Below are positions 28,172 through 28,205 of a stretch of DNA of 64,000 nt, in pieces (the stretch's first letter is position 1; each line of letters starts with the position of its first letter). Source of the DNA: Escherichia coli. Its GTDB lineage: Bacteria; Pseudomonadota; Gammaproteobacteria; Enterobacterales; Enterobacteriaceae. Made by a program: the position numbers and the translations under genes. The notes beneath the pieces are model-generated. The model did not search any database and was not told the DNA's origin. It worked only from the letters and a program-made list of their open reading frames with translations. The DNA is taken from the NCBI RefSeq assembly GCF_003018255.1, contig NZ_CP027440.1, one strand, 5' to 3'.

Positions 28172-28183
28172 AGCATCACAAAA

Positions 28184-28201
28184 ACGGGCCAGACGGCCCG
28201 T
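28184..28201. terminator. bidirectional hairpin between convergent ubiK and glgS
   Basis: ACGGGCC-aga-CGGCCCGT flanked by A-rich and T-rich tracts. Confidence 0.5.
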
Positions 28202-28205
28202 AATA

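Follow-up and report, generated by a model that had tools for sequence, protein, structure and literature searches.

Two related chaperone-usher operons have been described in Escherichia coli, Yqi in phylogroup B2 and Yqi-like, to which the operon of K-12 type belongs, in phylogroups A, B1, D and E; they are mutually exclusive and reside at different loci (Wurpel et al. 2013, PMC3559732). Antao et al. (2009, PMC2771359) report the EA/I (yqi) cluster from ExPEC strains and its absence in K-12 and O157:H7. A literature search for an explicit statement on the yqiC–glgS junction, where the K-12-type operon is located, returned promoter catalogues only.

This junction is analysed here in a stretch of E. 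coli DNA of 64,000 nucleotides, referred to below as the window, through direct observation of the anatomy of the locus, its frequencies in the population, the states of outgroups, the breakpoints, the linkage of the ubiK tail alleles and the contrast in GC content. The junction varies among strains by the presence or absence of a cryptic fimbrial operon, an ordinary and common polymorphism that has already been documented. It is highly probable that the window retains an ancestral junction that was never interrupted, that the fimbrial island was acquired by import in another lineage, and that IS2 entered the island later, in K-12.

The ubiK–glgS junction

The window carries ubiK (yqiC) on the plus strand at 27872..28171, an allele of ancestral length with 99 codons plus stop that is supported by the list of open reading frames (ORFs), Pfam and RefSeq, and glgS on the minus strand at 28206..28406, with 66 codons plus stop, supported by Pfam and RefSeq. 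The stop codon of ubiK, TAA, occupies 28169-28171, and that of glgS, TGA on the minus strand, occupies 28206-28208, which leaves a spacer of exactly 34 bp at 28172..28205 (AGCATCACAAAAACGGGCCAGACGGCCCGTAATA) with no ORF in it. The sequence-only reading, which had described the two genes as directly convergent with no gene between them, was accurate to the base according to the ORF list, Pfam and RefSeq. UbiK matches the Pfam family BMFP (PF04380) over residues 1-78 with 96.2 bits against a cut-off of 37.2, and GlgS matches PF08971 over residues 1-66 of 66 with 153.9 bits against a cut-off of 32.2. In a strain whose sequence matches window positions 27600-28800 at 100%, RefSeq gives ubiK and glgS the same annotation. 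Complete identity to the window extends over 1.2 kb around the junction in E. coli DETEC-S792 and over 4.1 kb in E. coli JNE23-011.

The conserved left neighbour of ubiK is ribB (26845..27498, minus strand), placed by the ORF list and neighbour mapping and preceded by its FMN riboswitch (27602..27750, minus strand; Rfam RF00050, 120.9 bits). The two genes adjoin in 79 of 80 genome-collection loci, as well as in K-12, the B1 strain, DETEC-S792 and CFT073. An Rfam scan of 25000-33000 returned only this riboswitch and one Sib RNA, and no RNA family was found in the spacer. The Sib RNA is a single antitoxin RNA (31217-31366, minus strand; RF00113, 150 bits); in the matching strain one Ibs toxin is annotated between yqiK and hldE, where K-12 has the tandem pairs ibsD/sibD and ibsE/sibE. 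Elsewhere in the window, dsbI (23935-24605) is split into two ORFs by the deletion of one nucleotide, an A missing after 24126, relative to both CFT073 and DETEC-S792. The split represents either a frameshifted pseudogene in the window strain or a sequencing error.

The spacer hairpin

Within the spacer, the sequence ACGGGCC-AGAC-GGCCCGT at 28184..28201 forms a hairpin that is the predicted terminator of glgS, followed on the minus strand by TTTTTGTGATG. Its stem (28184-28190 / 28195-28201) comprises 7 pairs, 6 of them G-C, closed by the 4-nt loop AGAC; the folding z-scores are -4.9 on the plus strand and -3.2 on the minus strand, and 0 of 200 shuffles fold equally well. The terminator scan scores the hairpin on the minus strand only, that of glgS, where the U-rich tract lies directly 3' of the stem. 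On the plus strand, where the stem is followed by AATATCAGTG / AATATCAG, the scan found no U-tract for ubiK. Because the T-run is confined to the glgS strand, the element qualifies by sequence criteria as a canonical intrinsic terminator of glgS, with a predicted terminator function, and as a mere hairpin for ubiK, although it probably impedes read-through from ubiK too. It is not a bidirectional intrinsic terminator with a U-tract on both strands. The earlier description of the spacer as a 34 bp terminator hairpin therefore stands for the presence of a hairpin in a 34-bp spacer and for its role on the glgS strand, but not as a canonical terminator for ubiK.

The loci of Escherichia, Citrobacter, Salmonella, Klebsiella and Raoultella share an invariant stem, (A)CGGGCC/GGCCCG(T), with a variable loop; K-12 keeps the same hairpin beside glgS, and the spacers of Pseudocitrobacter and Superficieibacter contain different hairpins. 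In some Citrobacter (the spacers of loci L015, L009 and L021) the T-run beside this hairpin is found on the ubiK strand instead of the glgS strand, as in C. werkmanii (...GGCCCGTTTTTTG). From these sequences, ownership of the canonical terminator appears to switch between the two convergent genes from one genus to another.

The K-12-type island

The gene order in K-12 MC4100 is ubiK, ygiL, the usher gene yqiG with IS2 inside it, yqiH, yqiI and glgS, and the gap between ubiK and glgS measures 6,608 bp. In the B1-type strain 09-00049 this cluster, its usher gene intact, fills a gap of 5,271 bp. The island segment itself amounts to 5,148 bp, or 6,485 bp in K-12 with IS2, which is a later insertion into the K-12 usher gene. 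Its GC content of 40.1%, against 50.2% in the window, together with its absence from the outgroups at this site, gives the K-12-type insert the character of a genomic island by atypical base composition and distribution. Neither an integrase nor a tRNA attachment site nor long flanking repeats accompany it, the B1-type annotation consisting of the four fimbrial genes only.

A tblastn search of the whole 64-kb window with YgiL, YqiG, YqiH and YqiI gave no match at E<1e-5, and no usher, chaperone and subunit genes of a K-12-type Yqi-like operon lie between ubiK and glgS there. The sequence-only reading had placed ygiL, yqiGHI and an IS element between yqiC and glgS in K-12, and had proposed a comparison with K-12. 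This placement was correct, the element being IS2 in yqiG, and the comparison ran in its favour, since yqiC and glgS are not adjacent in K-12. The arrangement of the window is indeed uninterrupted when set against the 6,608 bp of MC4100.

The K-12-type island (locus L002, 4759-10029) also exists in two allelic classes that are about 94.5% identical; relative to the B1 reference, 1,240 genomes carry it at an identity of at least 99%, and 2,094 genomes at 90-95%. This divergence is far above that of the flanking core genes (98-100%), a hint of recombination in the fimbrial genes or of diversifying selection on them. The ubiK tail of strain HS, of phylogroup A, is only 94.0% identical to that of K-12, so that the allelic classes may not follow phylogroup.

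Breakpoints and flanking divergence

By megablast, the window is homologous to K-12-type genomes as far as 28102, a position in codon 77 of ubiK that coincides exactly with the end of its BMFP domain in Pfam, and again from 28177 onward. The intervening 74 bp (28103..28176) have no megablast counterpart in K-12-type genomes, where about 5.3 kb, comprising an alternative tail, a spacer and ygiL-yqiGHI, are found in their place. The empty insertion point is marked in the window by the motif CATCACAAAAA at 28174..28184; in island-bearing genomes the island lies between this motif and the hairpin CGGGCC, and in K-12 the motif follows the ubiK stop by 91 nt. Island-bearing genomes show, in order, ubiK codons 1-77, an alternative tail of 57 nt followed by its stop, a stretch of 91 nt, a relic, the island of 5,148 nt, the hairpin and glgS. 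The relic, CAGAAT--ATCATCACAAAA / CAGAAT--ATCATCACAAAAA against CAGAATAAAGCATCACAAAAA in the window, is a probable remnant of the ancestral stop region, to judge from its alignment; of 2,000 shuffles each, 9 attained the alignment score in the case of the B1 strain and 19 in that of K-12.

The sequences on both sides of the gap are themselves diverged. Going leftward to rightward, the identity between the window and K-12 is 100% to 27984 and then falls to 88%, 83% and 45% towards the gap; on the right side it recovers from 67% to 92% and then to 100%. CFT073 and the window are 92-100% identical throughout the same stretch. The left flank of raised divergence (27985..28102, plus strand) is about 87% identical to the K-12 type and contains 15 substitutions, all synonymous, that fall in ubiK nucleotides 129-222. 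In the right flank (28206..28283, minus strand), the final 43 nt of glgS have 8 substitutions, one of them non-synonymous (T59A). The flank in K-12 has an identity of 87% with the window and of 83% with E. albertii and is roughly equidistant from all Escherichia references.

These features suggest the following course of events. An AT-rich chaperone-usher operon of about 5.15 kb (ygiL-yqiG-yqiH-yqiI) would have been acquired at ubiK–glgS in a lineage to which K-12, BL21 and many strains similar to the phylogroup B1 reference belong. Its most likely route would be homologous recombination with a diverged, Escherichia-like donor in which the island already lay between ubiK and glgS, with crossovers inside ubiK (near window position 27985) and inside glgS (near 28283). 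The same event would have replaced the last 22 codons of ubiK with the alternative tail of 19 codons. K-12 would then have gained IS2 in the usher gene, and the lineage of the window would have taken no part in any of these steps. Among the 80 genome-collection loci, no donor outside E. coli with both the K-12-type tail and the island was found. A transposition signature, with a target-site duplication (CACAAAAA on the left, CACTAAAA on the right), is not claimed, because the right copy of the repeat coincides in part with the A-tract, which the glgS terminator would require in any case.

The gradient of divergence could equally reflect an old balanced polymorphism instead of a single import with donor flanks. 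Both haplotypes would then predate the diversification of E. coli, and the flanks would have diverged in place while recombination was suppressed near an indel of 5 kb. The gradual climb of divergence towards both breakpoints agrees with this account, as do the two island classes of about 94.5% identity, which suggest long residence. However, the flanks diverge by 13%, the distance between E. coli and E. albertii, against 0-2% elsewhere in the region; the GC content of the island is lower by 10 points; and the outgroup Escherichia loci are without it. We regard the old polymorphism as rather unlikely, though it is the strongest competitor of the import. It would alter the timing only and leave the conclusion on the window unchanged.

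Exchange of the UbiK tail

UbiK has 99 amino acids in the window and 96 in K-12-type genomes, the last 22 codons being replaced there by a tail of 19 codons. In the window, codons 78-99 (28103..28168, plus strand) encode the C-terminal tail taken as ancestral, at the position where K-12-type genomes encode NRSTEIKKQPDPETLPPTL. The conserved domain, residues 1-77, has the same amino acids in both haplotypes, and the exchanged tail is located outside the Pfam domain. Among relatives, the tail of the window is of the type found in Citrobacter, Salmonella, Enterobacter, Kosakonia and Phytobacter (...PAPAIPPVDPQE), with that of K-12 (...NRSTEIKKQPDPETLPPTL) as the outlier; the tails of Klebsiella and Raoultella are shorter. 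The K-12-type tail is carried by 0 of the 80 genome-collection loci, a set among which E. fergusonii was not kept. Since the left edge of the island lies inside ubiK at codon 77, K-12-type strains have a derived UbiK of 96 amino acids. The earlier interpretation of the locus is correct as to the uninterrupted state and is refined in three respects: that state is the ancestral one and the K-12 form the insertion; the hairpin has its T-run on the glgS strand only; and the difference reaches beyond the intergenic sequence, since the final 22 codons of ubiK are exchanged in the island haplotype as well.

To our knowledge, all biochemistry of the Ubi metabolon has used the UbiK of K-12; the other, conserved and proline-rich tail (PAPAIPPVD type) is retained in about 38% of E. 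coli and in most Enterobacteriaceae. In a more far-reaching reading, the island overwrote the 22 C-terminal residues of UbiK and turned the K-12 protein into a derived chimera, the function of the tail depends on the strain, and read-through from ubiK couples glgS to it; taken together, these propositions appear improbable. If the tail were functional, through contact with the membrane or a partner, ubiquinone biosynthesis or YqiC-linked colonisation phenotypes could vary by strain. In strains with the junction of the window type, where ubiK is without a canonical terminator, convergent read-through into glgS might couple the genes by antisense transcription. As modelling of UbiJ-UbiK2 depicts the C-termini as flexible or disordered (PMC9499169), a functional consequence of the tail exchange is possible but unlikely. 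The non-ancestral C-terminus of the K-12 protein nevertheless advises caution when results are transferred to Salmonella YqiC or to other lineages of E. coli.

Haplotype frequencies in E. coli

Counts were taken over 5,426 complete E. coli genomes. The genes ubiK and glgS are contiguous in 2,066 of them (38%), the ygiL-yqiGHI island is present in 3,247-3,368 (about 3,360), and the K-12-type 3' end of ubiK is found in 3,362. As 2,066 and 3,362 together nearly equal 5,426, the linkage of the ubiK tail allele with the island is almost perfect, which makes this a two-state locus. The claim that the window differs from K-12 by a strain-level structural difference is borne out by these figures, with 2,066 contiguous genomes set against about 3,360 with the island.

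When the neighbouring site is taken into account, three haplotypes emerge. The B2-type cluster was counted in 994 genomes, among them Nissle 1917 and ST131 strains, and 1,115 have neither cluster; the window belongs, like O157:H7, to this roughly 20% of E. coli without either operon of the Yqi type. Added together, the counts of the three haplotypes give 5,471 and exceed the number of genomes by about 45; the excess probably consists of truncated or IS-disrupted islands counted twice (row H149, for example).

Ancestral state of the junction

Eighty loci around ubiK were fetched from other species, and the neighbouring genes were mapped. In every outgroup locus that contains glgS, this gene directly follows ubiK in convergent orientation, across spacers of 28-247 bp. 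The adjacency was found in E. albertii (L011), Escherichia sp. (L004), eight Citrobacter and S. arizonae (L023), and further in Klebsiella, Raoultella, Pseudocitrobacter and Superficieibacter. Adjacency in all these loci, combined with the shared UbiK tail, points to the adjacent state as ancestral and to the K-12 form as an insertion. The direction of the event would accordingly follow from parsimony over the outgroups and from the UbiK tail.

The reverse course, in which the lineage of the window once had the island and deleted it, for example through the edge repeats CACAAAAA / CACTAAAA, was weighed against this polarity. An imperfect direct repeat of 8-9 bp does flank the island in K-12 and B1-type genomes, and the approximately 45 genomes that seem to hold degraded islands indicate that deletions occur in the region. 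A deletion between the repeats would, however, leave the tail of the K-12-type UbiK of 96 amino acids and 91 nt of spacer, whereas the window has the tail of the 99-amino-acid UbiK, which is common to other genera; in addition, tail allele and island go together almost without exception in the 5,426 genomes, and all outgroups are adjacent. Because deletion of the island could not restore the ancestral UbiK tail, the state of the window is best read as a primary absence, and secondary deletion in its lineage, which we consider very improbable, is rejected on the evidence of the tail. That the adjacency is an artefact, through collapse of the assembly or because the window is not from E. coli, has nothing in its favour and a negligible probability, given that the junction is identical or nearly so in 2,066 complete E. 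coli genomes from mostly independent assemblies, CFT073, Nissle-type, ST131 and O157:H7 strains among them, and that the region has matches of 100% in two complete E. coli genomes.

The second fimbrial site between yqiD and ribB

A second fimbrial-island site, 1.3 kb to the left of the junction, is likewise empty in the window. It is the yqiD–ribB spacer of 237 bp (26608..26844), which is occupied in CFT073 (phylogroup B2) by the Yqi/EA-I cluster (L084, 34579-39553). The B2-type operon is not present in the window, whose yqiD–ribB spacer is without a remnant of it, and window positions 26702-26846 have no counterpart in the CFT073 island. The B2-type and K-12-type clusters share only 37-59% protein identity and about 65% DNA identity in the usher gene. 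Because of these low identities, the notion that the two are copies of one island moved across ribB–ubiK is rejected.

A chaperone-usher cluster related to Yqi and convergent with ribB was also observed in Enterobacter, Citrobacter, Lelliottia, Pseudocitrobacter and Klebsiella spallanzanii (loci L012, L017, L021, L024, L025, L027, L030, L031, L032, L056, L075 and L077). It occupies the position of the CFT073 cluster, just downstream of ribB, at about 4000-8900 of each locus, and its ushers are 42-71% identical to that of CFT073, the closest being those of K. spallanzanii and Enterobacter sp. MGH 24. The family may thus have an old fimbrial locus beside ribB that is only patchily filled.

Comparison with known systems

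What the analysis adds to the documented polymorphism is the direction of the event, the exact breakpoints, of which the left one lies inside ubiK, and the frequencies of three haplotypes, none of which will surprise specialists. With K-12 taken as the derived state at this locus and the window as the ancestral one, the finding has little importance beyond annotation hygiene.

Compared with the locus of K-12 MG1655/MC4100, the window has the same flanking genes, the same hairpin at the end of glgS and identical UbiK residues 1-77; K-12 differs in having 6.6 kb between the genes (5.27 kb without IS2), an insert of 40% GC and a UbiK of 96 amino acids. The junctions of CFT073 (B2) and O157:H7 (E) resemble that of the window in gene order, in the 34-bp spacer, in the hairpin and in the UbiK of 99 amino acids, CFT073 being 92-100% identical across the junction. 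O157:H7 also shares the double-empty state of the window, unlike CFT073, which carries the Yqi/EA-I cluster between yqiD and ribB. In Citrobacter, Salmonella arizonae, Klebsiella, Raoultella and E. albertii, the convergent adjacency, a spacer of 28-94 bp and the stem CGGGCC/GGCCCG are those of the window, and the loop sequence varies; Citrobacter and Salmonella additionally share with it a UbiK tail of the PAIPP(V/I)D type. The Yqi or ExPEC adhesin I fimbriae, finally, are homologous to the K-12-type operon and similar to it in neighbourhood and in architecture (subunit, usher, chaperone and adhesin), but they occupy another site, yqiD–ribB, and are absent from the window.
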